Positions 1 to 10,793 of a stretch of 12,314 nucleotides of DNA are shown here, piece by piece. Position 1 is the first letter of the stretch. Every line of letters begins with the position of its first letter. This DNA is from an uncultured Chloroflexia bacterium (GTDB lineage: Bacteria; Chloroflexota; Dehalococcoidia; DSTF01; JALHUB01): contig CAVSBT010000002.1 in NCBI GenBank assembly GCA_963726245.1, positions 1 through 12,314 of the forward strand, written 5' to 3'. A model generated the notes under the pieces. That model was not told where the DNA came from and ran no database searches. It worked only from the letters and a program-made list of their open reading frames with translations. The translations under genes and the position numbers were made by a program.

Positions 1-51
1 GTCCCCCAGGGCGAGCAGGGAATCGCGTCCCAGGATTCGGTCCGTCTTCAT
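1..51 (-). CDS. Possible 5' end of a gene running off the left edge (MKTDRILGRDSLLALGD...)
   Basis: Minus-strand ATG at 51 preceded by purine-rich AGAGGGGTACAGG; open to the window edge. Only 17 codons are visible, so no product can be assigned. Confidence 0.3.
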   Translation of the reverse strand, partial: MKTDRILGRDSLLALGD

Positions 52-187
52 CCTGTACCCCTCTATTGCAACATTTCAGCCAGGCCAGCCACCGACCAGT
101 TCCCTCGGCGATGAAGCCCGCCGAAGAAGGGCAAACTCAGGCGGCGACCGGGAGGTCAGGCCGAACGAAGGCTAAGGCCGGCGCCAA

Positions 188-394
188 TCAGACGACGTCA
201 GGCAGCGGCCACTTCAGGTCGCAACTCAGGCAGCGAGCCTGGATCATCCGCTCGCCGCTCCAGTAGCTCAGGGTGAAGCTCTTGCCGCAACGGGGACACT
301 CCTGGTCCCCAATCTTCACCTGGCGCGGCGCCTTCGAGGCGCCTGCTCCTTGCCTGCGGGCTTCGCCAAGTGGCTGCTCAGAAGCGGCCGTCAT
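188..394 (-). CDS. Small zinc-ribbon protein (68 aa, CPRC...CLSC)
   Basis: Part of ORF 188..469. ATG at 394 has GGAGGAAGG just upstream and a TACAAT -10-like box further upstream; two CxxC pairs are spaced like a Zn ribbon. Confidence 0.6.
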   Translation of the reverse strand: MTAASEQPLGEARRQGAGASKAPRQVKIGDQECPRCGKSFTLSYWSGERMIQARCLSCDLKWPLPDVV

Positions 395-560
395 GACGCC
401 TTCCTCCGGCATGATTGTACACCAAACCACGGCTAGAAGCGCCAACCTGCCCCAGACACCTAGGGACACTGATCAACCGTCACCTAACCGACACCGAGCA
501 CCCCGCAATCACCGCCCCGCAGTCTCGTTCATAGATATGAGGCAGGACTACCATAGGGTC

Positions 561-1247
561 ATGACGCAGGCTGAACAGATTCTACAAAGAATCTGGCCCG
601 GCGAGGCGGGTCGACGCGTTTACGCCGTTCTCCGCGAGTGGTGCCGCGACCTGGACCAGCGCGACTCCTACAGCGGCGAGCACTCCACCCTGTCCACCCA
701 GTATGCCGTGATGCTGGCCCACCGACTGCGCCTTGACCCCAACACTGTGGCCGGGCTTTGGGTAGCAGGCCACGTCTACGACCTCGGAAAAATCGCCGTC
801 CCAGAAGAGCTCCTACGCCGTAGTGGCCCCCTTACCCCCGCAGAGATGGTGATGATGCGGACCCATGTCACGAGCGGCTACGGCATGGTGAAGGATTGGC
901 CTGTCCTTCGCTCCTCTCCTCGCTGGCTCTCGCGCCTCGTTTTCGAGGTCATCCTCCACCACCATGAGCGCTGGGACGGGACCGGCTATCCCACAGGCCT
1001 GAGGGGAGAGGATATCCCCCTGGGCGCCCGCGTTACGGCCATCACCGACGCCTTTTCCGCCATGATCCTGGACTCGCCGTACCGACAGGCCCGGGCCATC
1101 GAGGCCGCCCTGCGGGAACTGGAGACCCACGCCGGAAGCCAGTTCGACCCCTACATGATACCTCAGTTCGCAGCCCTGGTGCGCGTCATCGGCCGGGAGG
1201 GCTCCGCTTCGCGCCGCTCGCACAGTCGCAAAGACCTGGCTGCCTAG
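561..1247 (+). CDS. Stand-alone HD-GYP domain protein with a degenerate HD motif (YD)
   Basis: Motifs EHS, DLGK, RTH, HHERWDGTGYP, IPLGARV-AITDAF, PYR and GSQFDP are all typical of HD-GYP. Start at ATG 561 or 537; the 273-536 extension looks non-coding. Confidence 0.9.
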   Translation: MTQAEQILQRIWPGEAGRRVYAVLREWCRDLDQRDSYSGEHSTLSTQYAVMLAHRLRLDPNTVAGLWVAGHVYDLGKIAVPEELLRRSGPLTPAEMVMMRTHVTSGYGMVKDWPVLRSSPRWLSRLVFEVILHHHERWDGTGYPTGLRGEDIPLGARVTAITDAFSAMILDSPYRQARAIEAALRELETHAGSQFDPYMIPQFAALVRVIGREGSASRRSHSRKDLAA

Positions 1248-1289
1248 ACTTCGACCGCTTTCCAGGAGGCCTCACCTGCGAGTGTCGCC

Positions 1290-1313
1290 GGCGCCCGCCT
1301 TCGGGCAGGCGCC
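1290..1313 (+). terminator. GC hairpin with a cUUCGg tetraloop downstream of the HD-GYP gene
   Basis: GGCGCCCGCC-TTCG-GGCAGGCGCC (one mismatch); there is no strong U-tract. Confidence 0.35.
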
Positions 1314-1393
1314 CCTGTATCGACCGGCACGCAGTGAGCGACCGCAGCCGCGATTAGCTGTCCATGGTCTTCAGGGACAGCGAGGCTGCTTCG

Positions 1394-1402
1394 TGGTATA
1401 AT
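1394..1402 (+). promoter_or_regulatory. Extended -10 promoter (TG-G-TATAAT) for the Zn-ribbon gene at 1470
   Basis: Perfect TGnTATAAT, followed by a leader hairpin (GTCCCGGC...GCCGGGAC) and RBS GGAGGTGA before ATG 1470. Confidence 0.7.
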
Positions 1403-1469
1403 ATTATGTCAATAGACGTCCCGGCGTCTGCGCTGCCGTGCCGGGACGATGCGGAGGTGAGGGCTTCCA

Positions 1470-1684
1470 ATGGGGCTCTGGATCAAGGGCTGCCCCAAGT
1501 GCAAAGGCGACCTGTATAGCGACCGCGACATCATGGGCTACTACCGCCAGTGCCTACAGTGCGGCTACACGTTCTACGAACAGCGCCGCCGCCCGGTGCG
1601 AGCGCCGGCCTCCGGCCCCGTCCCCCGGGGGACGAAGGCGAGGGGCCCGGCGGGCCCAACCGCACCCTCTCCGAGGCCGCCTGA
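1470..1684 (+). CDS. Small zinc-ribbon protein (~71 aa, CPKC...CLQCG) with a probable 1-bp frameshift at C5G5 1622-1631
   Basis: MGLWIKGCPKCKGDLYSDRDIMGYYRQCLQCGY with a strong RBS. Adding one G at 1627-1631 gives ...GDEGEGPGGPNRTLSEAA-stop at 1684 and removes the 275-nt overlap of ORF 1470..2111 with DUF3090. Confidence 0.7.
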
Positions 1685-1836
1685 GCGGCCTCGCTCTTTC
1701 CCTGACTTTCTCACGGCACGCTGGCCCCGCCAGCCCGTACAACGGCTCCACGCGAAATCCCCGCCCAGGCCGACGCTGCCGCCCTTTTCGAGTAGAATAG
1801 GGAGCGATCGCGAGTTCCAGGCGCCGTCGGTGAGCT

Positions 1837-2364
1837 ATGGCCACTTACGACTTCGGGCCCGTGGACGCTCTGGACGCCGAGGCCATCGGCGTGCCAGGCA
1901 AGCGCACCTTCCGCATCCGGGCCTGGAAGGATCAGGCGACCGCTTCCCTCTGGTTGGAGAAGCAGCAGTTGCTGGCCCTTTCCCTGGCCCTGCGACAGGT
2001 GATGGCGCAATTGGGCCAGAACCCGCAGCCCAGGCCTCCGCCCAAACGGCCGTTCCCCGATCACCCCACCGTGGATATGAAGCTGGGGCGCCTGGCTTTG
2101 GGTCGCGATGAGGGCAGCGATCACCTCATCCTCTGGGCCCATGAGGCGGGCAGCAGCGAAGACGCGCCGCCGAACTTCAGTTGCCACTTCAACTGGGACC
2201 AAGCCCTGGCTTTCTGTGAGCGAGCAGAGGCTGTCTGCACCGCCGGTCGCCCAATCTGCCCCCTTTGCAGCGAACCCATCGACCCCGACGGCCACGTTTG
2301 CATACGCTCTAACGGCCACTCGCAGCAGGAGATCCCACCCCTCGAATCCGGCGAGAGCCCCTAG
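1837..2364 (+). CDS. DUF3090 family protein
   Basis: Recognisable motifs AIGxPGKRTF, LWLEKQQL and C-terminal AGRPICPLC..PIDPDGHVC.RSNGH; TAGAAT -10-like box near 1793. Confidence 0.88.
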   Translation: MATYDFGPVDALDAEAIGVPGKRTFRIRAWKDQATASLWLEKQQLLALSLALRQVMAQLGQNPQPRPPPKRPFPDHPTVDMKLGRLALGRDEGSDHLILWAHEAGSSEDAPPNFSCHFNWDQALAFCERAEAVCTAGRPICPLCSEPIDPDGHVCIRSNGHSQQEIPPLESGESP

Positions 2365-2367
2365 CCG

Positions 2368-2400
2368 AAGAGGTCCTCGTCGGCGAGCCGGGGCCTCTTT
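2368..2400 (+). terminator. Probable intrinsic terminator after DUF3090
   Basis: AAGAGGTCC (2368-2376) pairs with GGGCCTCTT (2391-2399), and the hairpin ends in a pyrimidine run immediately after the stop codon. Confidence 0.55.
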
Positions 2401-2402
2401 CC

Positions 2403-2432
2403 TTGACAGCCTGCAAAGGCCATCTCTATAAT
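2403..2432 (+). promoter_or_regulatory. Consensus sigma70/sigmaA promoter of tRNA-Ala
   Basis: TTGACA (2403-2408), 18-bp spacer, TATAAT (2427-2432), 10 nt before the tRNA. Confidence 0.9.
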
Positions 2433-2442
2433 CCTTTCACGT

Positions 2443-2518
2443 GGGGATATAGCTCAATTGGGAGAGCGCGGCGTTCGCATCGCCGAGGTCGGGGGTTCGA
2501 ATCCCCCTATCTCCACCA
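2443..2518 (+). tRNA. tRNA-Ala(CGC)
   Basis: Acceptor GGGGATA/TATCTCC with G3:U70, D arm GCTC/GAGC, anticodon stem CGGCG-TTCGCAT-CGCCG, T loop TTCGAAT, encoded ACCA end; 76 nt. Confidence 0.98.
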
Positions 2519-2537
2519 ACTGCAAGTCAGGCGTCAG

Positions 2538-2582
2538 AGGCTGGAGGTTGGACGGGTGACGGTCGCGTCCAGCCTCCAGCCT
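2538..2582 (+). repeat. 17-bp inverted repeat (hairpin) between tRNA-Ala and the first tRNA-Arg half
   Basis: AGGCTGGAGGTTGGACG (2538-2554) / CGTCCAGCCTCCAGCCT (2566-2582), one G:U pair, 11-nt loop, followed by TGCTTCT; either a terminator or a processing stem. Confidence 0.7.
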
Positions 2583-2601
2583 TGCTTCTGATCACCAGGG
2601 C

Positions 2602-2640
2602 GCCCCTGTAGCTCAGTCGGACAGAGCAGCGGTTTCCTAA
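2602..2640 (+). pseudogene. tRNA-Arg(CCT) 5' half, copy 1 (att-like junction)
   Basis: GCCCCTG TA GCTC AGTCGGACA GAGC A GCGGT TTCCTAA matches the intact tRNA at 5244 through the anticodon loop, then diverges; no T arm or 3' acceptor strand follows. Confidence 0.9.
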
Positions 2641-2814
2641 GTCGCCCCCGCTATACGCTGTAGCCCCAGCTTCTACGTCCCCACCTACACGCCCAAAGTT
2701 ATCTTGGCTATCGAACCCGGCCCACGTCTGCCTCTGGCGGTCGGTGGCCATCCTTTGGCCTGGCCACCGACCCGGCAGCGAGTATGGCTGCCACCACCCG
2801 CGCGTCGAGGGTCT
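2641..2814 (+). repeat. Conserved post-anticodon arm, copy 1
   Basis: Aligns with 4037-4206: by hand count 65/80 identical over the first 80 nt (ungapped) and 56/64 over the last 64 nt. Confidence 0.92.
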
Positions 2815-2853
2815 GCGACGGCTGCGAGAAGGTGGTCCCCTCACAGGATAACC

Positions 2854-2882
2854 TTGACCGGGGGAAGGCGTTTCCGTAGGGT
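2854..2882 (+). promoter_or_regulatory. Probable promoter of the DsbA-like cargo gene
   Basis: TTGACC (2854-2859), 17-bp spacer, TAGGGT (2877-2882). Confidence 0.45.
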
Positions 2883-3028
2883 AGAGGCAGTCTAACGTCG
2901 AGAGGGTAGGCAGAGGGAGCCGGTTCTTGTGTCGATGGGGGCATGAAGTGGCAGAACAACCTGATAAGCGAGGATCATCGCGCAGGCAGGCAGACTCAGC
3001 GAAAGGAAGCTCAAGTCAAGCAGCCAAC

Positions 3029-3795
3029 TTGAGGCTGCGCTTCTCGATAAGCCTGATCGTGGCCATCGCGGTCGTGGCGGCAGCAGCCGGCATGGGCTGT
3101 GGCGGCACGTCGGAGGACGTCGCAGCCCACGCCGGGGCACAGCCTACGCCGGGGCGCAGGCTACGCAGGGGACCGGGGGCACTCCCACGGCCGAGCCAAC
3201 CCCGAAGACCATCAACGATTGACCCGGGCGACAACCCCGCTAAGGGGCCGGCGGACGCAAAGGTCACAATCGTCGAGTTCTCCGACTTCCAGGGTCCAAA
3301 CTGTGGGAGCTTCGCTCAGCAGACCCTGCCGCAAATACTGGCGAACTACGGGGATAAGATCCGCTTTGTATTCATGAACGACCCCCTGAAGGGCAATACC
3401 TATGCCCAAAAGGCTGCGGAGGCGGGGGAGTGCGCAAATGCGCAGGGGTCCTTCTGGCAGTACCACGACTTGCTGTTCCAGAACCAGCAGGTCCTTACCA
3501 ACCTGCTTACCCCCGATCCAACGGCGGGGCCCACCAAGGTAGTCGAGAGCCTGAAGGGCTACGCGGCCCAGCTAGGGCTGGACACCGCTAAGTTCAATGA
3601 CTGCCTGGACTCGGGGAAGATGGCGAGCGCAGTGCAGGCGGACCAGCAAGTCGCGCAGAAGGCCATCCAAGATGCAGGGTTGACCAGCTTCCGCGGCATA
3701 CCGGCTTTCTTCATCAACGGCAACTATCTGGGCGGCGCCAGCCGTACGATGTCTTCAAGCAGCTGATCGACGCGGCGCTGGCGGCCGCCGGGTAG
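3029..3795 (+). CDS. DsbA/BdbD-family thioredoxin-fold lipoprotein with a GxxC active site; frameshifted
   Basis: GPADAKVTIVEFSDFQGPNC, AQKAAEAGECANAQGSFWQYHDLLF, GIPAFFING. Signal peptide MRLRFSISLIVAIAVVAAAAGMG-C from TTG 3029 (alternative GTG 2948). One missing C near 3738 restores the canonical end GAQPYDVFKQLIDAALAAAG-stop at 3795; further compensating indels lie in the Pro/Thr linker 3115-3218. Confidence 0.85.
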
Positions 3796-3950
3796 CAGCG
3801 GCGGAAGACCCCAACCGACGTAGAGACACCCGGCAGGTCGTGCTACTCCAGTACGGCCTTGGTGCCTCTGCCGGCTGACTTCTGCACGAGGCGCAGCCGG
3901 TGGGGGTACTAATATCGCATCCGTATCTGCCCGGCTCCCGGACCCCTGCT

Positions 3951-3997
3951 TCGCCTCATTCGCCGGTACCTGGCTGTGTGCTACACTGACTCGAGGC
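3951..3997 (+). promoter_or_regulatory. Conserved promoter arm upstream of tRNA half copy 2
   Basis: TTCGCC (3959-3964), 17 bp, TG-C-TACACT (3982-3987); 39/47 identical to 5197-5243. Confidence 0.75.
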
Positions 3998-4036
3998 GCC
4001 CCTGTAGCTGAGTCGGACAGAGGAGCGGTTTCCTAA
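3998..4036 (+). pseudogene. tRNA-Arg(CCT) 5' half, copy 2 (D stem decayed)
   Basis: 37/39 identical to copy 1; both differences (GCTC>GCTG, GAGC>GAGG) break D-stem pairs; ends at TTCCTAA. Confidence 0.9.
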
Positions 4037-4206
4037 GTCGGCCCCGCTATGCGCTGTAGCCTCAGGTTCCACGCCCCCAGCTAAACCCCAAAAGCTATCG
4101 TGTCTATCCAACGCGGCCCCCCTTTCCCTACGGCCGGTGGCGTCCTTTGGCCTGGCGACCGGACCGGGCGCCAGTATGGCTGCCACGACCCGCGCGTCAA
4201 GGGTCT
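4037..4206 (+). repeat. Conserved post-anticodon arm, copy 2
   Basis: Homologous to 2641-2814; both copies end at CGCGCGTCRAGGGTCT. Confidence 0.92.
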
Positions 4207-4297
4207 AGATACCTCCGGCACACGCCTCCGGCGCGCCCTTGACCCGCGGGTGTACAATACTTCCGTCCTCGCCACCCGTTGGACAGGGAGGTGCAAC

Positions 4298-5139
4298 ATG
4301 AAGCGGCGGCTAGGCACGGCAATAGTGGTTGGCCTGGCAATGGCGCTGCTGGCAGGCAGCGGCTCGTCAGTCTCGGCGCAGCCCGTGGCCAGCATCGCCC
4401 TCCCGGCACCCGGCACACTCAGCAGCTCTACCCCGGCTGCAACAACATCTCCCTCACGTTCCCCGACGGCACCCCCAGTCAGACCGTGGTGCAGGCGGTG
4501 ACGCCTGCCGGGACAGTGGAGACGCTCTGGCGCTTCAACGGGCCTCTGAACAAGTTCGAGGGTTTCTCTCCGGCCTTTCCCCAGGCCAGTGACCTGATGA
4601 GCGTCAACTTCCTGGACGCCGTGTGGTTCTGCATGAGCGCAGCGCCGGGGGCCACCTCGCCGCCGCTGCCCTCTCCCACACCGGCGTGGAGTTGCGTGTC
4701 GGCCCCTACGACATACCACAATGAGCAGTTTGGATTCGAGTTCCAGTACTGCAGCGGTGCACGCTCACGGACCAGTCCGAAGGAGCTCATGGCCCTGGTG
4801 GTGGCGAGGTCTACCTGTGGATCATCGTGGGCAGTCGTTTGGAGGTGTACGTGAGTGATTCGGGTGGACTGAGCCTCACGGACTACGTCAGCCAAGTGAC
4901 GGCACAGTTGGAAGCAGGAGGCGCTTCGATTGACTCCGTAACACCAGGTTGCTCCCGTCGGCGGTGCGGACGCGGTGACCGTACAGTACAGGTTTGGAGG
5001 CCTCGGCCGGTACGGCGAAGCGACCTACTTCCAGCGCAATGGCCTGGTCTACGATGTTGAATTCACTGCGGGAGCCTTCACTTGCAACGAGCCCCAAGTT
5101 TACACGGGGATACTGTCCACGTTCCGGTTTACGGAGTGA
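4298..5139 (+). CDS. Secreted two-domain protein (N-terminal LYPGCNNISL domain, Pro/Thr linker, PsbP/DcrB-like C-terminal domain); three frameshifts
   Basis: RBS GGAGGT, ATG 4298, signal peptide MKRRLGTAIVVGLAMALLAGSGSSVSA. Pieces join across frames near 4390, 4755 and 4955: ...TYHNEQFGFEFQY...RLEVYVSDSGGLSLTDYV...VGGADAVTVQYRF...NGLVYDVEF...ILSTFRFTE-stop at 5139. Confidence 0.72.
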
Positions 5140-5196
5140 TTGGCCTGGGCGCTCTCGCATCAAAGGTCCTCTTGGCAACACTATTCATGCGGCAGA

Positions 5197-5243
5197 TCGC
5201 CCGATTCGCTGCCACCTGGCCGTGTGCTACACTGACTCACGGC
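5197..5243 (+). promoter_or_regulatory. Conserved promoter arm upstream of the intact tRNA-Arg
   Basis: TTCGCT (5205-5210), 17 bp, TG-C-TACACT (5228-5233), 10 nt before the tRNA start. Confidence 0.8.
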
Positions 5244-5318
5244 GCCCCTGTAGCTCTAGGATAGAGCAGCGGTTTCCTAAACCGTTTGTCGCGGGTTCGA
5301 GTCCCGCCAGGGGCCCCA
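5244..5318 (+). tRNA. tRNA-Arg(CCT)
   Basis: Acceptor GCCCCTG/CAGGGGC, D arm GCTC-TAGGATA-GAGC, anticodon stem GCGGT-TTCCTAA-ACCGT, T arm GCGGG-TTCGAGT-CCCGC, then C-CCA; 75 nt. Confidence 0.95.
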
Positions 5319-5634
5319 TCTTTGGAGATCACAGGCCTGTTCCATTCGCCGAGGCCCTAGCCTGCCGACCCCCTTGTGCGGCCCTCGGGGCTCGCATACA
5401 ATGCCCACGAGACAGGAGGCTCGGCCTGCCCATTGTTAGGCGGGGCAAGGCGGGCCACATGCAGGGACGCTAGGGGTCGTGCGCCTCGAAACCACCAGCG
5501 GGGGACACGGCCCCACTTCATCTCCTGTTTGGCGCGGTCCATCCTTTCCGGCGGGCTTTCTGGGTGCAACTCGGGCCGTTCCGTAGGACAGGGAGCAAGC
5601 GTCTGGTCATCCCGCCTGGACACCCGGCTGTAAC

Positions 5635-5901: not shown

Positions 5902-7005
5902 ATGACTAAGGAAGAGGGCTGGGTTTCGAGCAGATACTCTCCGGAGGATGCCCAGGATTCCTTGCAGCTTCTACGCAAGACCTCGGGCGACATCGAGGCC
6001 GCCTCCCCGGCCTATCAAGAATGGCAGTACCAGCGAAACCCTGCGGGCCCGGCTATCGCCACCCTGGCGCGAGAAGCGGAAACGGGCCGGCTCATCGGCC
6101 AGGTGGTAACAACCCCTGTCAGAGTAAGGCTTTCGGGCAAGGTGCGCGTCGCCAGCCTTTCGCTGGACCCGGTGATTGATCCTGCCTACCAGGGCCGCGG
6201 CGTCCTCGCCGGACTGTTGAAGGATGTCTGCGCTCTGTCGGCAGAGGAGGGCATCGCCTTCACCTACGGCTTCCCCAACCAGGCTTCCTATTCGACATTC
6301 GTGAACAAGGCTGGGTTCAGGAACATAGGGTCGGTTCCTCTCCTCGTCAGGCCCTTGAACCCGGAGCGCCTCGCCATGAAGACAACGCACAGTCGCGTTC
6401 TAGCGAAGACGGCCTCCGTCGCCAGGCGCGTGTGGCGCACCCCTCCGCCGATGCCGCCGCAGAAGGCCGTGCCCGGCCTGGAGATAGGGGAGGTCGATTC
6501 CTTCGATAGCTCCTTCGTCCTCTTCTGGGACAGGGTCCAGCACCGATTCCCCGTCATGGTGGTCAGGGACCCCTCCTACCTCAACTGGCGCTTCGCGGGC
6601 GTGCCTACTAGAGAGTACACGACCTTCGTCGCCAGGTCGGAGGATGAGATACGAGGCTTCATCGTCCTTCGCGCCGCGCCGCTGGGTCAGTTCTCCGCGG
6701 GCCTCATCGTGGAGCTGGTAGTGGAGGCCAGCGCCGAGGGGCGCGCGGCGGGCCGCCTCTTGATTGACAAGGCGTACTCCTACTTTGAAGACCAGGACCT
6801 AGACATCCTTGCCAGCCTGGCTCTGCGACATACGGATGAGTTCCGACTCCTCCGGTCGAGGGGCTTCTGGGTAGCTCCCAAGTTTCTGGAGCCCCGGCCC
6901 TTCCGTCTTGTTGTGCGCTGCCACGACGAAGAGCGCAGCCCCAGCCGTCTGGCCTACGACCTCAGGAACTGGTTCGTGACGATGGGGGACTACGAGGCGG
7001 GGTAG
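5902..7005 (+). CDS. GNAT family N-acetyltransferase (tandem GNAT folds)
   Basis: 367-aa ORF with WQYQRNPAG, acetyl-CoA motif IDPAYQGRGV, YGFPN, VVRDPSYLNWRF and C-terminal WFVTMGD. Confidence 0.9.
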   Translation: MTKEEGWVSSRYSPEDAQDSLQLLRKTSGDIEAASPAYQEWQYQRNPAGPAIATLAREAETGRLIGQVVTTPVRVRLSGKVRVASLSLDPVIDPAYQGRGVLAGLLKDVCALSAEEGIAFTYGFPNQASYSTFVNKAGFRNIGSVPLLVRPLNPERLAMKTTHSRVLAKTASVARRVWRTPPPMPPQKAVPGLEIGEVDSFDSSFVLFWDRVQHRFPVMVVRDPSYLNWRFAGVPTREYTTFVARSEDEIRGFIVLRAAPLGQFSAGLIVELVVEASAEGRAAGRLLIDKAYSYFEDQDLDILASLALRHTDEFRLLRSRGFWVAPKFLEPRPFRLVVRCHDEERSPSRLAYDLRNWFVTMGDYEAG

Positions 7006-9043
7006 GCAGGGCTGCTGAGACTCGAGGCTTCGGCGGGCACTGTTACTAGCACACGGGTCCCTGCGCCCGGTTCTGAGTGTACAGCTAGGGTTCCCCCAAG
7101 CAGCCGAACTCGCTCTTGCATTCCTATTATGCCGAGCTTGCCGGACGCAGCCAGGTCGCTTGTGCTCCTCGGTAGCTCAAAACCGTCGCCGTTGTCCGCG
7201 ACTATCATGGTGATCCCGCCGCCTCTGAAGTCCACCGTGACTTCAACTGCGGACGCACCCGAGTGCTTTCTAACGTTGTTCAGCGCCTCCTGAGCAATGC
7301 GGAACAGGGCCAGCTCCGCCTCATCCGGGAGGCGATGCTGCTCACCCAACACCCTGATGTTTGCCGCTACGCTGTGCTGTTCTTCCAGAGCTGTCGCAAG
7401 CCATTTCAGCGCTGGCAGCAAGCCCAGATCATCAAGGACAGGCGGACGTAGGTCCCGGCTGAAGCGGCGTACACCTTCCAGTATCCTGTCGCTCTGCTCA
7501 CGGAGCTCCTCAAGACGCTCCGGGATCTCCTTCGGCAACTGGTTTCCGCTGGAGGCCAGCGTGTCAACGAGCATATCAAGACGACGAGAGAGTCCAGTGA
7601 GGGCCTGCGCGGTGTCATCATGAAGCTCGCGGGCGATGCGCAGCCGCTCACCCTCCTGAGCCTTGAGAACCTGTGAGATGTAGAAACGCAGGTTCTCTTG
7701 CATTCGCCGCTGCTCGGTCACATCTCTCACGATCGCCTGGACGCCTACGGGCTGCTCGCCTCGAATGATCAAGCTGGGCATGAGCTCCACGATGGCCTCG
7801 CGTCCCGTCTCGCTTGGTCAACCCGAGCTCGAAGGGACCCTCGACGGCCTCGCCGTTGAGTTGCCTCCTGACAATCTCCTTCACAGTCTCTCGGCCTTGC
7901 CCCGAGAGGAACCTGCCGATATCCATCCTGGCCATTTCCGCACGACCATAGCCAGTAAGCTTCTCACAGGCGCTGTTGGCCGCGATGATCTTGCCGTCCA
8001 GGTCGTGAACAAAGATTGCTTCCGTAGCGTTCTCAAAAAGGCCTCGATAGTTCTCTTCCGATTGCCGAAGCTGCTCAGCGGTTTCTCGCTCCTTCTGGTA
8101 AAGGCGGGCATTCTCAATGGCGACGCCAATCGCGTTGCCGATGGCGTTCAGCACCTCTATCTCGTCGGCACTGAACTCCCTCAGGCTGCGTGTGGCCGCG
8201 CACAGAGTGCCCATCACCCTGCCTTTCGACTTCAGGGGCACGATGAGCTGCGTCTGGATCTCGCCTAGTCCTCCCACGCCGCTGTACAGTGCCAGCTCGC
8301 CAGAGACGTCTCTGATTGCCAATGGTTCTCCCGTTTGGGCGACGCGCCCATTGAAACCCTCGCCCACCTTGATCGGTTTGATGGCAGCCGCGGACTCGTC
8401 CGCTATGCCGTGATAGGCTTCGAGAGTTAGCTCGCCAGCCTCCTCCTGAAGGAGGAACAGCAAACATATCTCTACGCCCATCACATCGCTGACCTTGTTC
8501 ATGGCAAGGCCCAGGATGTCCCGCAGCTCCAGAGACTCGGTAACAACGCCCAAGACGGCATTGATGGCAGAGAGCCGCCTCTCCTCATTCTCGATAGCCT
8601 GGATGTGTGATTGGAGCTCCCCCTGAGCCCATTCCAGCGATGCAATGGTCTGCTTGTGTCGCGCCTTCTCCTTGTTCTGCACGTCTATCAGCCAGCTTAC
8701 AAAGGCGCCGATGAAGAGGAAGGCGGCAACCTCAATTGCGGCCTCTTCGGCCTCCGAGGATACCAGGAAGACGCGGGGCAACAGGAGCGCAGCAATCACG
8801 GAGGAGGCCAGGAGGCCTCCCGGCAGCCCGAAGACAAAGGCGGCATAGGCTACGGGCAGAATGGAGAGTATCCGGTGCACGGAGTGTCGGGCGAAGTCGA
8901 GTCGAAGGCTTTGTTTCCACCGAGTCTATCAAAGGGATGTGGTCTGCATAATAGAAGACTGTCCCGCAGGTCATGATGGCCAGTATGACCCAGAAGTGCG
9001 GCTCTTTCAGAACTTCAAACGGCTGTCTTCGTGAAGAAGCCAA
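6990..9043 (-). CDS. Membrane sensor histidine kinase (TM-GAF-PAS-HisKA_3-HATPase, NarX/LiaS-like); frameshifts near 8910 and 7800
   Basis: Joins ORFs 8732..9043, 7648..8880 and 6990..7790: TM helices, GAF (GEGFNGRVAQTGEP...AIENARLY), PAS (LFENATEAIFVHD...VRDVTE), H-box ERLRIARELHDDTAQ, EALNNVRKHS, DNGDGF, GIIGMQERV. Confidence 0.9.
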
Positions 9044-9958: not shown

Positions 9959-10190
9959 TCTGACGCAGCGTTGCGACATGTGCGCGAAAAGGGGGCCATA
10001 TGGCTGCATCAACCCTCCGCCCGTTTGTCGAACCTCCGCTCGTTTTCGAGGCGTCAAATGCCTAACAAGGACGGCTTCGGCGGCGGACGACAGCACCGGC
10101 GCGGCACAGTAGGCTTGAGACGCAGGAGCAGAAAGCTCAGCGGATTGTCAAAGCTCCGGCTGGAACCGACAGGGAATGGGGGCGATAGAG

Positions 10191-10793
10191 ATGACAATGA
10201 CAGGCTTCGAAACAAGGCTTCGGACCACAGTGGAGAAGGGAGGGAATGGTAGCTCCGCCTATCTCTATCCGCCGCGAAGGATGAGGGCGGTAGGCTACGT
10301 GAGGCAGGGCTTCGATGAGATGGGCAAGAAGGGGACCAGCCCCGAAGGCCAGAAGGCAAGGGTGGCTGGGTGTGCCGACTCCCACGAATGGCATCTCATC
10401 CACACCTATGAAGACATTGGCTGGTCGGGAGAGGACCTGGACAGGCCGGGCCTGCTGGCGCTGCTCTCCGACCTGGACTTCGAGATCCTGATAGTGGACA
10501 GGACGGACCGCCTGACCTGCAAGAAGAAGGACCTGGACTTCCTCCTGGCTCTCCTTGAGAAGCACGGCGTCACTTGCGTGCCTGCCACCTGGTCGTGGGA
10601 GCCCCTGGCCCAGTACATGAGGTGGTGGTACCGCCTGCGGGCCAGTCCCGTGTACGCAGTGCTCGACTCTCCCCTGCGGAGGGTGAGCCGAGCCCAGCCA
10701 GAGGACGTCCGGTGGCGAGCATGGTGGGAAGCCCGACCTGAGAGGGATCCTACTCAAGGGGGGACAGTCAAGGGACTGCAGGGTGGATTGTAG
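10191..10793 (+). CDS. Serine recombinase (resolvase) N-terminal-domain protein lacking the catalytic Ser
   Basis: RAVGYVRQG...SPEGQ...YEDIGWSG..LDRPGL..LL...ILIVDRTDRL; no HTH or recombinase C-terminal domain. Start uncertain (10176, 10191 or 10281). Confidence 0.85.
   Translation: MTMTGFETRLRTTVEKGGNGSSAYLYPPRRMRAVGYVRQGFDEMGKKGTSPEGQKARVAGCADSHEWHLIHTYEDIGWSGEDLDRPGLLALLSDLDFEILIVDRTDRLTCKKKDLDFLLALLEKHGVTCVPATWSWEPLAQYMRWWYRLRASPVYAVLDSPLRRVSRAQPEDVRWRAWWEARPERDPTQGGTVKGLQGGL

Follow-up and report, generated by a model that had tools for sequence, protein, structure and literature searches.

The window, that is, the whole 12,314-nt stretch of DNA that was analysed, contains two tRNA genes according to ARAGORN and Rfam, tRNA-Ala(CGC) at 2443–2518 and tRNA-Arg(CCT) at 5244–5318. 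The latter is a whole gene that keeps its cloverleaf (Rfam 62.8 bits; fold −36.6 kcal/mol, z −3.9). A repeat finder and a three-way alignment revealed that the stretch of tRNA-Arg(CCT) running from nt 1 through the anticodon loop is present in three copies, whose coordinates (Table 1) run, as read from the sequence, from tRNA nt 1 to the last base shared by all, the final A of the anticodon loop. Repeat D5 (2619–2640, 4015–4036 and 5259–5280) ends with them, every copy closing in ...GGTTTCCTAA. Copies 1 and 2 run on into GTCG... and have ~215 nt in common (2599–2814 versus 3995–4206, 83% identical), and only copy 3 runs into the tRNA 3′ half, ACCGTTTGTC.... Upstream, block D3 is common to copies 2 and 3 (3951–3995 and 5197–5243, 86% identical); copy 1 is without it and is preceded by the hairpin behind tRNA-Ala, whose surroundings (2519–2601) fold at −49 kcal/mol (z −5.4). 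Repeats of 40–215 nt at 83–95% identity within 12 kb are far above chance, and since the three-copy structure was seen again in independent assemblies, misassembly is excluded. The repeats and the alignment bear out the sequence-only reading in that the duplicated part extends from tRNA nt 1 through the anticodon loop and the inserts lie upstream of the intact gene, a reverse polarity in which the 5′ part is duplicated and not the usual 3′ part.

Table 1. Features of the tRNA-Ala/tRNA-Arg locus (window coordinates).
Position	Strand	Feature	Basis
2403..2432	+	Host promoter of the tRNA-Ala/tRNA-Arg pair, TTGACA-18-TATAAT	12/12 consensus match; identical at the G001 empty site
2443..2518	+	tRNA-Ala(CGC), a host gene preceding the insertion site	ARAGORN; Rfam tRNA 69.3 bits
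2538..2582	+	Stable hairpin (host sequence) in the spacer from tRNA-Ala to the tRNA-Arg 5′ half of the host	Inverted repeat I15
2602..2640	+	Copy 1: tRNA-Arg nt 1 to anticodon-loop end, original to the host, orphaned; attL-like left junction	D-loop as in the intact G001 tRNA; D5
2641..2730	+	R5′ of cassette 1, ~90-nt conserved end beginning directly after CCTAA	Alignment of 32 copies
2731..2814	+	Type-A tail of R, cassette 1: hairpin GGTCGGTGGCC..GGCCACCGACC, AGTATGG, GCGCGTCGAGGG	Repeat D2; alignment
2944..3797	+	Cargo 1: gene for a thioredoxin/DsbA-like lipoprotein, spread over more than one frame	Pfam Thioredoxin_4, 2.4e-19
3951..3997	+	L of cassette 1: TTCGCC 3959–3964, TGc-TACACT 3979–3987, extended −10	D3; conserved in other cassettes
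3998..4036	+	Copy 2: 5′ half supplied by cassette 1, now internal, decaying	Alignment; two D-stem pairs broken
4037..4206	+	R of cassette 2 (R5′ 4037–4126, then type-A tail)	
4298..5139	+	Cargo 2: secreted protein with signal peptide, three frames in the window	ORFs; three-frame translation
5197..5243	+	L of cassette 2, putative promoter of the working tRNA-Arg: TTCGCT 5205–5210, TGc-TACACT 5225–5233	D3
5244..5280	+	Copy 3: 5′ half of the working tRNA-Arg(CCT), derived from a cassette	D-loop unlike the G001/copy-1 host type
5281..5318	+	Host-derived 3′ half of tRNA-Arg(CCT)	Downstream flank common to G001

Each cassette is made up, in order, of R5′ (~90 nt), cargo, L (~45–60 nt) and a tRNA 5′ half. 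R5′ has no conserved RNA structure: the RNAalifold consensus of 32 copies (in an alignment whose L072 row is misaligned owing to wrong coordinates) reaches −4.5 kcal/mol with four pairs and no compensated pair, and 198 of 200 shuffles of a single R5′ sequence fold better than the sequence itself (z +2.2). A structured RNA was thereby ruled out, hairpins being confined to the optional type-A tail of R. Kept as sequence and unstructured as RNA, R5′ would fit a protein-binding DNA site. On the minus strand of R in cassette 2, a promoter-like TTGACG-16-CATACT lies at 4200–4173. Internal 5′ halves carry disabling changes, namely in the D-stem of window copy 2, in the anticodon (CAT) of a copy in G012 and as CCCAA in metagenome locus L102.

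Three-frame translation of cargo 1 revealed frame changes and GPNC in place of the family's C/U-x-x-C site, and its match to the NCBIfam Rcas_1661 family (2.9e-24) lies under that family's curated cut-off. Cargo 2 becomes one 280-aa ORF once placeholders fill three indel places seen in public contigs; near-identical public contigs are free of the window's frameshifts. Homologues of cargo 2 occur in L087, L091 and L102, and relatives carry DUF11. Among the cargo of the cassettes are restriction-modification and DndB-like genes as well as genes for secreted proteins and cyclases; by a crude longest-ORF count, the cargo is co-directional with the upstream promoter in 21 of 27 cases.

The empty site and the promoter of tRNA-Arg

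The uninterrupted locus is found in G001, a genome of the same genus whose downstream genes are 91–97% identical in protein. Window positions 2400–2640 and 5238–5420 map contiguously in G001 (G001:C95 7238–6998 and 7042–6862), where tRNA-Ala, the spacer hairpin (also found in metagenome arrays) and an intact tRNA-Arg are contiguous. This empty site identifies window 2641–5280 (2,640 nt) as inserted DNA with exact borders. In the intact G001 gene, the copy-1 D-loop GCTCAGTCGGACAGAGC is joined straight to ACCGCGTGTC..., and the working tRNA-Arg of the window has the D-loop GCTCTAGGATAGAGC. Since G001 has the copy-1 D-loop, copy 1 is the 5′ half originally present in the host and the tRNA-Arg found now is a chimera, the crossover being bounded by this one D-loop comparison only to tRNA positions ~22–38. 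These are the empty site, the original 5′ half of an Ala–Arg pair and the chimeric functional gene that the sequence-only reading had predicted. It had also named the observation that would speak against it, an empty site already carrying the TGTGCTACACT promoter and the copy-3 D-loop; nothing like TGTGCTACACT lies upstream of the G001 gene, the copy-3 D-loop is absent there, and the reading survived. Five further empty Ala–Arg sites were found (G004, G005, G028, G037 and G031).

The promoter that had been proposed for copies 2 and 3 fared less evenly. The shared block is there, with TTCGCC-17 nt-TACACT (3959–3987) upstream of copy 2 and TTCGCT-17 nt-TACACT (5205–5233) upstream of copy 3, each with TG two bases ahead of the hexamer, and it is absent from copy 1. 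A generic sigma-70 scan of the window did not call it, and as the first hexamer matches at only 3/6 positions, L ranks as an extended −10 promoter only. A cassette-supplied promoter for the working tRNA is suggested by comparative evidence, since GTGCTAnACT stands upstream of the intact tRNA-Arg at 9/10 far ends of occupied arrays versus 0/6 empty sites. The related TGCTAnnnT lies before 13 of the 57 tRNA genes of the window's MAG, versus 0.37% of random 60-nt windows, mostly beginning 18–22 nt upstream of the gene as in L, and to judge from these positions it is apparently a native tRNA-promoter type of that MAG. From these patterns we infer promoter activity of L.

A cassette family shuffled piece by piece

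The same architecture recurs in three other Chloroflexota MAGs, with genome loci in G012, G019 and contig C44 of G000, and on 23 metagenome contigs (24 loci, L089 and L091 being one contig). The 13 complete cassettes, i.e. those with two junctions, measure 1.2–4.8 kb; both ends are 80–95% identical around unrelated cargo, and direct repeats of 85–215 nt at 83–95% identity flank every cassette. In the literature searched, which was not exhaustive, we found no description of such a family.

Comparison of three metagenome loci demonstrates that cassettes are exchanged one at a time. Locus L094 reads tRNA-Ala, a hexapeptide-transferase cassette, tRNA-Arg; L088 shares that hexapeptide-transferase cassette (94% over 600 nt) and continues with R and a cyclase cassette. 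The latter matches the cyclase cassette of L081, which ends in L and tRNA-Arg, at 97% identity over 1,393 nt. Among these loci, homology switches exactly after CCTAA. The genome G012 holds two cassettes and, in addition, a strain-variant contig with different ones (C3 versus C4). With one cassette found alone or with varied neighbours at 94–97% identity, and two array versions in a single MAG population, the turnover must be recent.

Lone R5′ copies were found at nine metagenome loci, counted by hand and including three (L080, L083, L095) with one common upstream sequence, and in G011, G023, G012:C2 and G009. They carry ~8–13 nt of tRNA sequence (..GGYYTCCTAA) preceded by unrelated DNA, in at least six upstream contexts, which is the trace that insertion at secondary sites through a crossover in the loop should leave. 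The circle junction or excision joint (2640 to 5281, 4036 to 5281) was not seen in contigs of runs X1, X4, X5 and X6, which comprise contigs only, none from the source sample, and cover small shares of the stretch.

Recombinase search and mechanism

Tyrosine or serine recombinase and transposase domains were absent from all 13 complete cassettes in Pfam and PHROGs scans (ORFs of at least 130 aa in metagenome loci and at least 80 aa in genome loci), which revealed not even an integrase fragment, a lack on which the sequence-only reading had not remarked. The cassettes were likewise free of TnpA/TnpB and DEDD recombinase domains (IS200/IS605-type and IS110-type), although an element of these types elsewhere in the genome may act on them in trans, and no PF00589 match was found in the window. 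The tyrosine recombinases of G000 sit on contigs C25, C26 and C46, and G001 and G023 each have just two, both Xer-like and present in 10/10 genomes searched. Six loci with tyrosine integrases and six with serine-recombinase genes, fetched from G000, G012 and G019 as part of all recombinase matches, lie next to another tRNA or are unlike L, the 5′ half and R and were rejected on that ground; several of these loci adjoin tRNA-Pro, Phe or Lys. A window ORF with a Resolvase domain (10176–10793) was also rejected, as its YVRQG lines up with the YTRVS of TP901-1 integrase, so that the catalytic Ser is missing; it is single-copy, present in 15/17 f1 and 2/2 f3 genomes, and its distance to the array varies. 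A 471-aa large-serine-recombinase homologue (G000:C6, N-terminus YFRDA) does not discriminate, being present in 87/93 genomes of the order, the unpublished G060 included, whether or not they carry cassettes. Both of these clade-conserved serine-recombinase homologues lack the catalytic serine.

A helper element with the same attachment site was found neither in 93 genomes of the order, 401 of the class and the 23 metagenome contigs, material consisting of MAGs and short contigs that often miss mobile DNA, nor in IMG/VR. There, two patterns gave no match and two shorter ones gave 11 loci without a true match, their likeness to the window junction or R being limited to ~17–30 nt around the pattern or scattered in weak matches (11–34 nt, E from 1e-4 to 10).

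Taken together, we consider it probable that 2641–5280 represents two small mobile cassettes inserted in the anticodon loop of the host tRNA-Arg(CCU) and moved by a trans-acting recombinase; site-specific recombination in the loop with the enzyme supplied in trans is the most likely mode. As the cassettes carry no recombinase, the enzyme must act in trans, and it could come from a helper element or from the host. We infer a circular intermediate and a crossover inside the loop. The free cassette would be a circle of R5′ and tail, cargo, L and tRNA nt 1–38, its joined ends (L, 5′ half, R5′; ~190 nt) serving as the attachment site. Crossover with the chromosomal tRNA gene would occur 3′ of the D-loop, most likely within the 7-nt anticodon loop, so that the cassette would land upstream of the tRNA 3′ half and leave the host 5′ half orphaned beside tRNA-Ala. 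The working gene would then combine the cassette 5′ half with the host 3′ half and be severed from the tRNA-Ala promoter, the extended −10 promoter in L taking over. Because each cassette supplies a new front half and promoter, the gene still works, and a second insertion into the restored gene would yield a tandem array with the newest cassette beside the tRNA.

A more far-reaching reading, which we hold to be possible though doubtful, is integron-like gene capture in a clade of Chloroflexota, with the anticodon loop of tRNA-Arg(CCU) as its fixed insertion site. The invariant, unstructured R5′ would be recognised by a recombination system that is not borne by the cassettes and that belongs to none of the recombinase genes linkable to them; a host factor or an enzyme of a new kind could fill this role. 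Here, the cassette would pay its way through its tRNA-type promoter and tRNA 5′ half, and once a further cassette has arrived, the older L promoter could drive the cargo of the next.

The main rival to a site-specific enzyme is homologous recombination between the conserved ends, which we regard as unlikely. RecA-type exchange after DNA uptake would gain, lose or swap cassettes over L plus the 5′ half (~100 nt) or the 5′ half plus R5′ (~130 nt); gene conversion, and not the binding of a protein, would keep R5′ and L alike, and a site-specific event would have occurred a single time in the distant past. Neither the arrays nor their surroundings yielded a recombinase, flanking repeats of 85–215 nt suffice for precise deletion or single-crossover insertion of a circle with the same products, and the strain-level replacement of C3 versus C4 in G012 resembles allelic exchange. 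However, the empty site offers a first insertion only ~39 nt of homology, and the lone R5′ copies with ~10 nt of tRNA in at least six contexts suggest a short-core crossover. All informative breakpoints fall at CCTAA, although identical repeats make a crossover further upstream indistinguishable.

It is improbable that the cassettes are dead CIME-type remnants of integrase-carrying islands that decayed by deletion, with L and R as leftover att arms and nothing mobile. Decay followed by tandem accretion is documented to give rise to units between att repeats that have no integrase, as described in a section of PMC5704250, 15 Dehalococcoides ssrA islands without an integration module are on record in part of PMC3146451, and both window cargo genes lie in several frames with a damaged internal 5′ half between them. 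Yet 13/13 complete cassettes are small and devoid of any integrase fragment, their ends are conserved around unrelated cargo, the frameshifts of cargo 2 are missing from near-identical public contigs, and turnover is recent. That no mobile DNA is involved, the copies stemming from local tandem duplication of the tRNA region or from a split or intron-bearing tRNA gene, is highly implausible: group I introns do occur in bacterial tRNA anticodon loops, tRNA-Arg(CCU) among them, but Rfam at E up to 1 returned two tRNAs only and no intron family or other known RNA, copies 1 and 2 have no 3′ exon behind them, the cargo between copies is unrelated, R5′ lacks conserved structure and an empty site exists in G001.

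Relation to tRNA-targeting elements and integrons

Islands and prophages classically land in tRNA genes, and by the accepted account the incoming element brings an integrase and takes the place of the gene's 3′ end. The present cassettes share with such site-specific elements flanking direct repeats of a tRNA segment, one restored intact gene and an empty site; they lack an internal integrase (0/13) and the 3′ duplication with a downstream element. Elements replacing the 5′ part of a tRNA gene, described by Zhao and Williams in 2002, are reportedly single islands with their own integrase. Like our cassettes, these lie on the upstream side of the intact gene and have to replace the tRNA 5′ part; unlike them, the cassettes are 1.2–4.8 kb, recombinase-free and arrayed, with a conserved promoter in L. 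Recombination at the 5′-distal side is called 'considerably less frequent' than at the 3′-distal side in a passage of PMC6563490.

CIMEs (Pavlovic et al. 2004, via part of PMC5704250) keep attL/attR-like repeats without integration or transfer genes and are traced there to ICEs or IMEs that decayed at the target's 3′ end. The cassettes likewise keep att repeats and have no integration and transfer genes; they differ in having no known parent, a reversed polarity and a small, uniform size with mostly one to few genes, and in keeping both ends across unrelated cargo. The Dehalococcoides ssrA islands, as portrayed in portions of PMC3146451, are tandem, split by direct repeats of a gene fragment and inserted in a loop, with 20 bp of the 3′ end repeated downstream; sixteen have a CcrB-like serine integrase module, and the 15 without are proposed to be cis-mobilizable. 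On that partial account, they resemble the cassettes in phylum, tandem arrangement at a tRNA-like gene and loop insertion, and differ in the 3′ repeat and downstream position, a comparison made by description and by R5′ searches, which were negative. Tycheposons of Prochlorococcus insert at tRNA genes, with partial tRNAs between elements and stacked insertions, and in the parts of that study drawn on here the 937 screened elements are described as carrying an integrase, integrase-less units being mentioned as degenerated remnants only (bioRxiv 10.1101/2020.12.28.424599). To that extent, they too are stacked by repeat insertion and carry cargo at tRNA genes, but they are described with integrases, and a promoter-bearing 5′ half does not come up in those parts.

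Integron cassettes are small and mostly single-gene, with one conserved recombination end, and are inserted at a fixed site with the newest nearest to it. The present cassettes are similarly small, arrayed at a fixed site with the newest beside it, and mostly co-directional with the promoter; in contrast to integrons, the arrays have no intI beside them and no attC-like folded site (by consensus and single-sequence folding), the insertion site lies inside a tRNA gene, and every cassette contains the promoter-like L.

The cassettes are thus a variation on tRNA-targeting elements in which the polarity is reversed and the array resembles that of an integron but has no integrase: a mirror image of the accepted scheme, used by a whole family of minimal, enzyme-free cassettes. 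An element that replaces the tRNA 5′ half must replace the promoter too. Should the cassettes be mobilised in trans, they would represent a second, independently evolved gene-cassette system beside integrons, in an uncultured soil/sediment lineage, and the defined ~190-nt site offers a handle for finding the missing recombinase. Transcription of an AGG-reading tRNA would also have become dependent on mobile DNA. That the element controls AGG decoding, as the sequence-only reading had it, goes further than these findings carry. The search for another tRNA-Arg(CCT), which the sequence-only reading had recommended, revealed none in the window's MAG (83% complete, seemingly mixed). AGG is a moderately used codon (~7 per 1,000), and a tRNA-Arg(TCT) gene on C17 may read it as well.

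The empty site and the chimeric tRNA-Arg(CCT) gene

The window makes up the entire 12,314-nt contig C2 of its MAG. Repeat finding and alignment placed two extra tRNA-Arg 5' parts between the tRNA-Ala(CGC) and tRNA-Arg(CCT) genes of the window. All three copies end with the final A of the anticodon loop (..GGTTTCCTAA), so the duplicated part does run from tRNA nucleotide 1 through the anticodon loop, as the sequence-only reading had it. The tRNA 3' half follows directly after copy 3, while block L is common to copies 2 and 3, again as first read; copy 1 is instead preceded by a very stable hairpin (-49 kcal/mol, z -5.4), which itself follows tRNA-Ala. The internal 5' halves carry disabling changes.

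Features of the window
Feature	Position	Basis or remark
tRNA-Ala(CGC)	2443-2518	ARAGORN + Rfam
tRNA-Arg(CCT)	5244-5318	ARAGORN + Rfam
Copy 1, tRNA-Arg 5' part	2602-2640	read from sequence
Copy 2, tRNA-Arg 5' part	3998-4036	read from sequence
Copy 3, tRNA-Arg 5' part	5244-5280	read from sequence
Block R, after copies 1 and 2 (GTCG.. onward)	2599-2814 + 3995-4206	~215 nt common, 83% identity
Block L, before copies 2 and 3	3951-3997 + 5197-5243	86% identical
Cargo 1, thioredoxin/DsbA-like lipoprotein gene		Pfam Thioredoxin_4; NCBIfam Rcas_1661 family, below its cut-off
Cargo 2, secreted protein gene	4298-5139 (+)	
Frameshift-split genes	6990-8880 (-), 1470-2364 (+), 4298-5139 (+)	

Among 40 relatives, the same-genus genome G001 has window positions 2400-2640 and 5238-5420 contiguous, and its proteins downstream of tRNA-Arg share 91-97% identity with those of the window. 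The order there is tRNA-Ala, hairpin and an intact tRNA-Arg(CCT), which has the D-loop of window copy 1 joined straight to ACCGCGTGTC.. and no L-like motif upstream; the sole promoter-like site at this locus is TTGACA-18-TATAAT before tRNA-Ala, the same as in the window. In five further genomes of the order, the gap between tRNA-Ala and tRNA-Arg is 7-98 nt. By this sequence comparison, the 2,640 nt of window 2641-5280 were inserted, copy 1 represents the original 5' half of the host tRNA-Arg, and the working tRNA-Arg is chimeric, its first 37 nt (which include a different, shorter D-loop) being insert-derived. The host origin of copy 1 and the chimeric gene, both proposed at first reading, thus held up against the empty site. 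The chimera keeps the cloverleaf fold and scores 62.8 bits (Rfam).

Distribution, shuffling and cargo of the cassettes

Block R was present in 7 of the 93 genomes of the order, one match (in G075) being only 26 nt of tRNA sequence and the other six all falling in two families, f1 and f3; these were also the only families represented among the 4 of 401 genomes with R sampled from the class. One pattern scan gave 24 loci on 23 metagenome contigs. The same array grammar (R, cargo, L and a tRNA-Arg 5' half) recurs in G019, in G012 with two cassettes, and on metagenome contigs L081, L082, L090, L091 (two cassettes), L094 and L102; contig C4 of the G012 MAG has a different cassette set. It also recurs on contig C44 of the window's own MAG, where C44:87251-90032 is an 80-82% identical version of window 4-2765 that includes tRNA-Ala, hairpin, 5' half and R. 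In this MAG several tRNA species (SeC, Pro-cgg, Gly-ccc, Gln-ctg, Glu-ctc) are present twice, and the bin is probably a mixture of two related organisms.

Cassettes with two bounding junctions (n=13) measure 1.2-4.8 kb. Only the first ~90 nt of R (R5') are universal; beyond them comes either a hairpin-bearing "type-A" tail or, at once, the cargo's own promoter (TTGGCA-17-TAAGAT + ATG). Metagenome contig L094 reads tRNA-Ala, hexapeptide-transferase cassette, tRNA-Arg; in contig L088 this cassette recurs (94% across the 600 nt to the left of the junction), and after it come R and a hydrolase-cyclase cassette. The latter matches its counterpart in L081 at 97% identity over 1,393 nt, and in L081 it is L and the intact tRNA that come next. 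The left-hand homology extends through ..TTTCCTAA and ends there. Cargo of the cargo-2 type stands second in the window, L091 and L102, behind three different first cassettes, and a relative holds the first array position in L087. As read from these arrays, the cassettes assort independently. Rejected as an instance of this architecture was L054 (G031:C117), a segmental duplication; its two tRNA-Arg(CCT) genes lie 2.3 kb apart, the duplication takes in the whole tRNA and ~50 nt upstream, and the anticodon arm of the second copy is damaged.

The window's two cargo intervals are unrelated to each other, and cargo overall is diverse, with a solute-binding protein, hemerythrin, peptidase A4, DUF362 and RDD beside cyclases, DUF11 surface proteins, DndB, an Eco57I-like methylase and a NotI-like nuclease. 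Cargo 1 reads FQGPNCGSF at 3290-3310, with GPNC replacing the redox motif and Gly at the expected Cys/Sec; it also shows frame changes and may be decaying. The Rcas_1661 family comprises (seleno)lipoproteins, and the window's MAG has tRNA-Sec genes. Near-identical contigs from public DNA runs show single-base indels relative to the window at three places (about 4411-4415, 4756 and 4947), and placeholders there turn cargo 2 into one 280-aa ORF; similarly, the GAF-PAS-histidine kinase gene split at 6990-8880 is one 712-aa ORF in L091. Given these intact ORFs, the window's frameshifts probably reflect indel errors in the assembled contig, or else mutations that are very recent.

The putative promoter in block L and AGG decoding

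The TGc-TACACT of L ends 10-11 nt short of the tRNA 5' end, and a conserved ATTCGC stands 17 nt upstream of this motif. Of the 10 intact tRNA-Arg genes that close an occupied array at its far end, 9 have GTGCTAnACT in front of them, with TAGAAT in its place in G012; at empty sites the count is 0 of 6. TGCTAnnnT lies upstream of 13 of the MAG's 57 tRNA genes, versus 0.37% of random 60-nt windows, and mostly starts 18-22 nt upstream, as does that of L. These comparisons of occupied with empty sites and with native tRNA genes make it likely that L functions as a promoter. The proposed transcription of the chimeric tRNA-Arg from a cassette promoter is thus backed by motif comparison, though not by a generic promoter scan, which did not call the L promoter. 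At the empty site there is no space for a promoter between hairpin and tRNA-Arg, so the host tRNA-Arg is presumably co-transcribed with tRNA-Ala; because insertion severs this co-transcription, a cassette must bring its own promoter.

AGG makes up 7.5% of Arg codons (~7 per 1,000 codons) in ORFs of at least 400 aa. A search for another tRNA-Arg(CCT), a check proposed at first reading, found none beyond the chimeric gene in the MAG (2.68 Mb, 83% complete, 6% contaminated); a tRNA-Arg(TCT) gene is present. The cassette promoter likely now sets the level of tRNA-Arg(CCT), and the control of AGG decoding suggested at first reading is a hypothesis. With the longest ORF as a crude guide, 21 of 27 cargoes run in the direction of the array; Pfam contradicts one of the six "opposite" calls, L094, and the frameshifted ORF another, window cassette 2. 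This pattern fits expression of each cargo from a promoter upstream of it.

In L, the -10 region (TGTGCTACA) forms an inverted repeat with tRNA positions 8-16 (TGTAGCTCA), at window 3979-4004 and at L091:4340-4374, and TGTAGC is found again in R5' (GCTA-TGCGCTG-TAGC); a single protein could use these repeats as half-sites, or they could have arisen by chance. On the minus strand, a promoter-like TTGACG-16-CATACT at window 4200-4173, found at the same place in most type-A tails, overlaps the inverted repeat GCGCGTCAAGGG..CCCTTGACSCGC and is directed across R5' towards the tRNA 5'-half fragment. Transcripts from it, should it be active, would be antisense to nt 1-38 of tRNA-Arg(CCU).

Related elements and cassette movement

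The window's array, with neither intI nor an attC-like fold, failed the tests that define an integron, as it did those for a standard integrase island. The cassettes belong, as a variant, among the tRNA-targeting integrative elements, for which recombination with the 5'-distal part of tRNA genes is known and called "considerably less frequent" (PMC6563490). Integrase-less units between att repeats (CIMEs) and tandem accretion have been described (PMC5704250), as have integrase-less units at ssrA in Chloroflexota (PMC3146451) and tycheposons, whose cargo elements stack at tRNAs (bioRxiv 10.1101/2020.12.28.424599). Against these, what is distinctive is the combination of reversed polarity, a conserved, putative tRNA-type promoter built into the element end, uniformly minimal cassettes (domain searches found a recombinase domain in 0 of 13), a 90-nt invariant, unstructured end, and integron-like shuffling.

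The sequence of R5' is conserved without a conserved or stable RNA fold, which suggests that it is a DNA arm to which a protein binds. Lone R5' copies, which occur in nine metagenome loci, retain a tRNA remnant of only ..GGYYTCCTAA, preceded by unrelated DNA, and look as secondary-site junctions would if strands were exchanged in the anticodon loop. Comparison of D-loops with G001 puts the crossover 3' of tRNA position ~21. Together with the lack of a cassette recombinase, these observations favour conservative site-specific recombination in the anticodon loop, in which the enzyme would act in trans. Homologous recombination between the conserved ends is a serious rival, since identical products would be expected from it. 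No excision joint was seen in contigs of four public DNA runs, which cover only parts of the stretch.

Candidates for such a trans-acting enzyme were sought. G001 and G023 held only two Xer-like recombinases, a pair shared by all ten genomes searched; the further integrase and serine-recombinase loci that were fetched showed no similarity to the junction, and no helper element was found in viral contigs. The Resolvase-domain ORF at window 10176-10793 (+), of ~170-205 aa and with the serine-recombinase catalytic domain only, was rejected, its nucleophile being replaced (YVRQG vs YTRVS of TP901-1 integrase). The gene is conserved as a single copy in families f1 (15 of 17 genomes) and f3 (2 of 2), and the order's other families almost entirely lack it; gene and cassettes thus occur in the same two families, whose members are not independent. 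A full-length 471-aa large-serine-recombinase homologue (Resolvase, Recombinase and Zn ribbon; G000:C6:18911-20323, L125:3912-5327) was likewise rejected, as it has no nucleophilic Ser (N-terminus YFRDA). Preceded by a CT398-like coiled-coil/zinc-ribbon gene and present at 53-92% identity in 87 of 93 order genomes, a count that takes in the unpublished G060, it looks like a domesticated recombinase.

Further lone copies lie in the relatives' genomes. That of G011 (L068, G011:C1:691054-691233) is situated between a GmrSD restriction gene and the formate-tetrahydrofolate ligase (FTHFS) gene, upstream of FTHFS, and that of G023 (L071/L085, G023:C98) adjoins recA, with an IS-type rve transposase gene alongside in L085. 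R5' copies also lie downstream of tRNA-Val in G012 (L070, G012:C2) and G009 (L072). In G009 (C1, about 1258400-1259700), tRNA-Val(TAC) is followed by an integrase-less unit of ~1 kb that holds a secreted-protein gene and whose end repeats the tRNA-Val 3' part from the anticodon loop onward, i.e. with the usual polarity. After this unit come the R5' copy and a reverse-strand hemerythrin gene; a hemerythrin gene also interrupts R in G012:C4.
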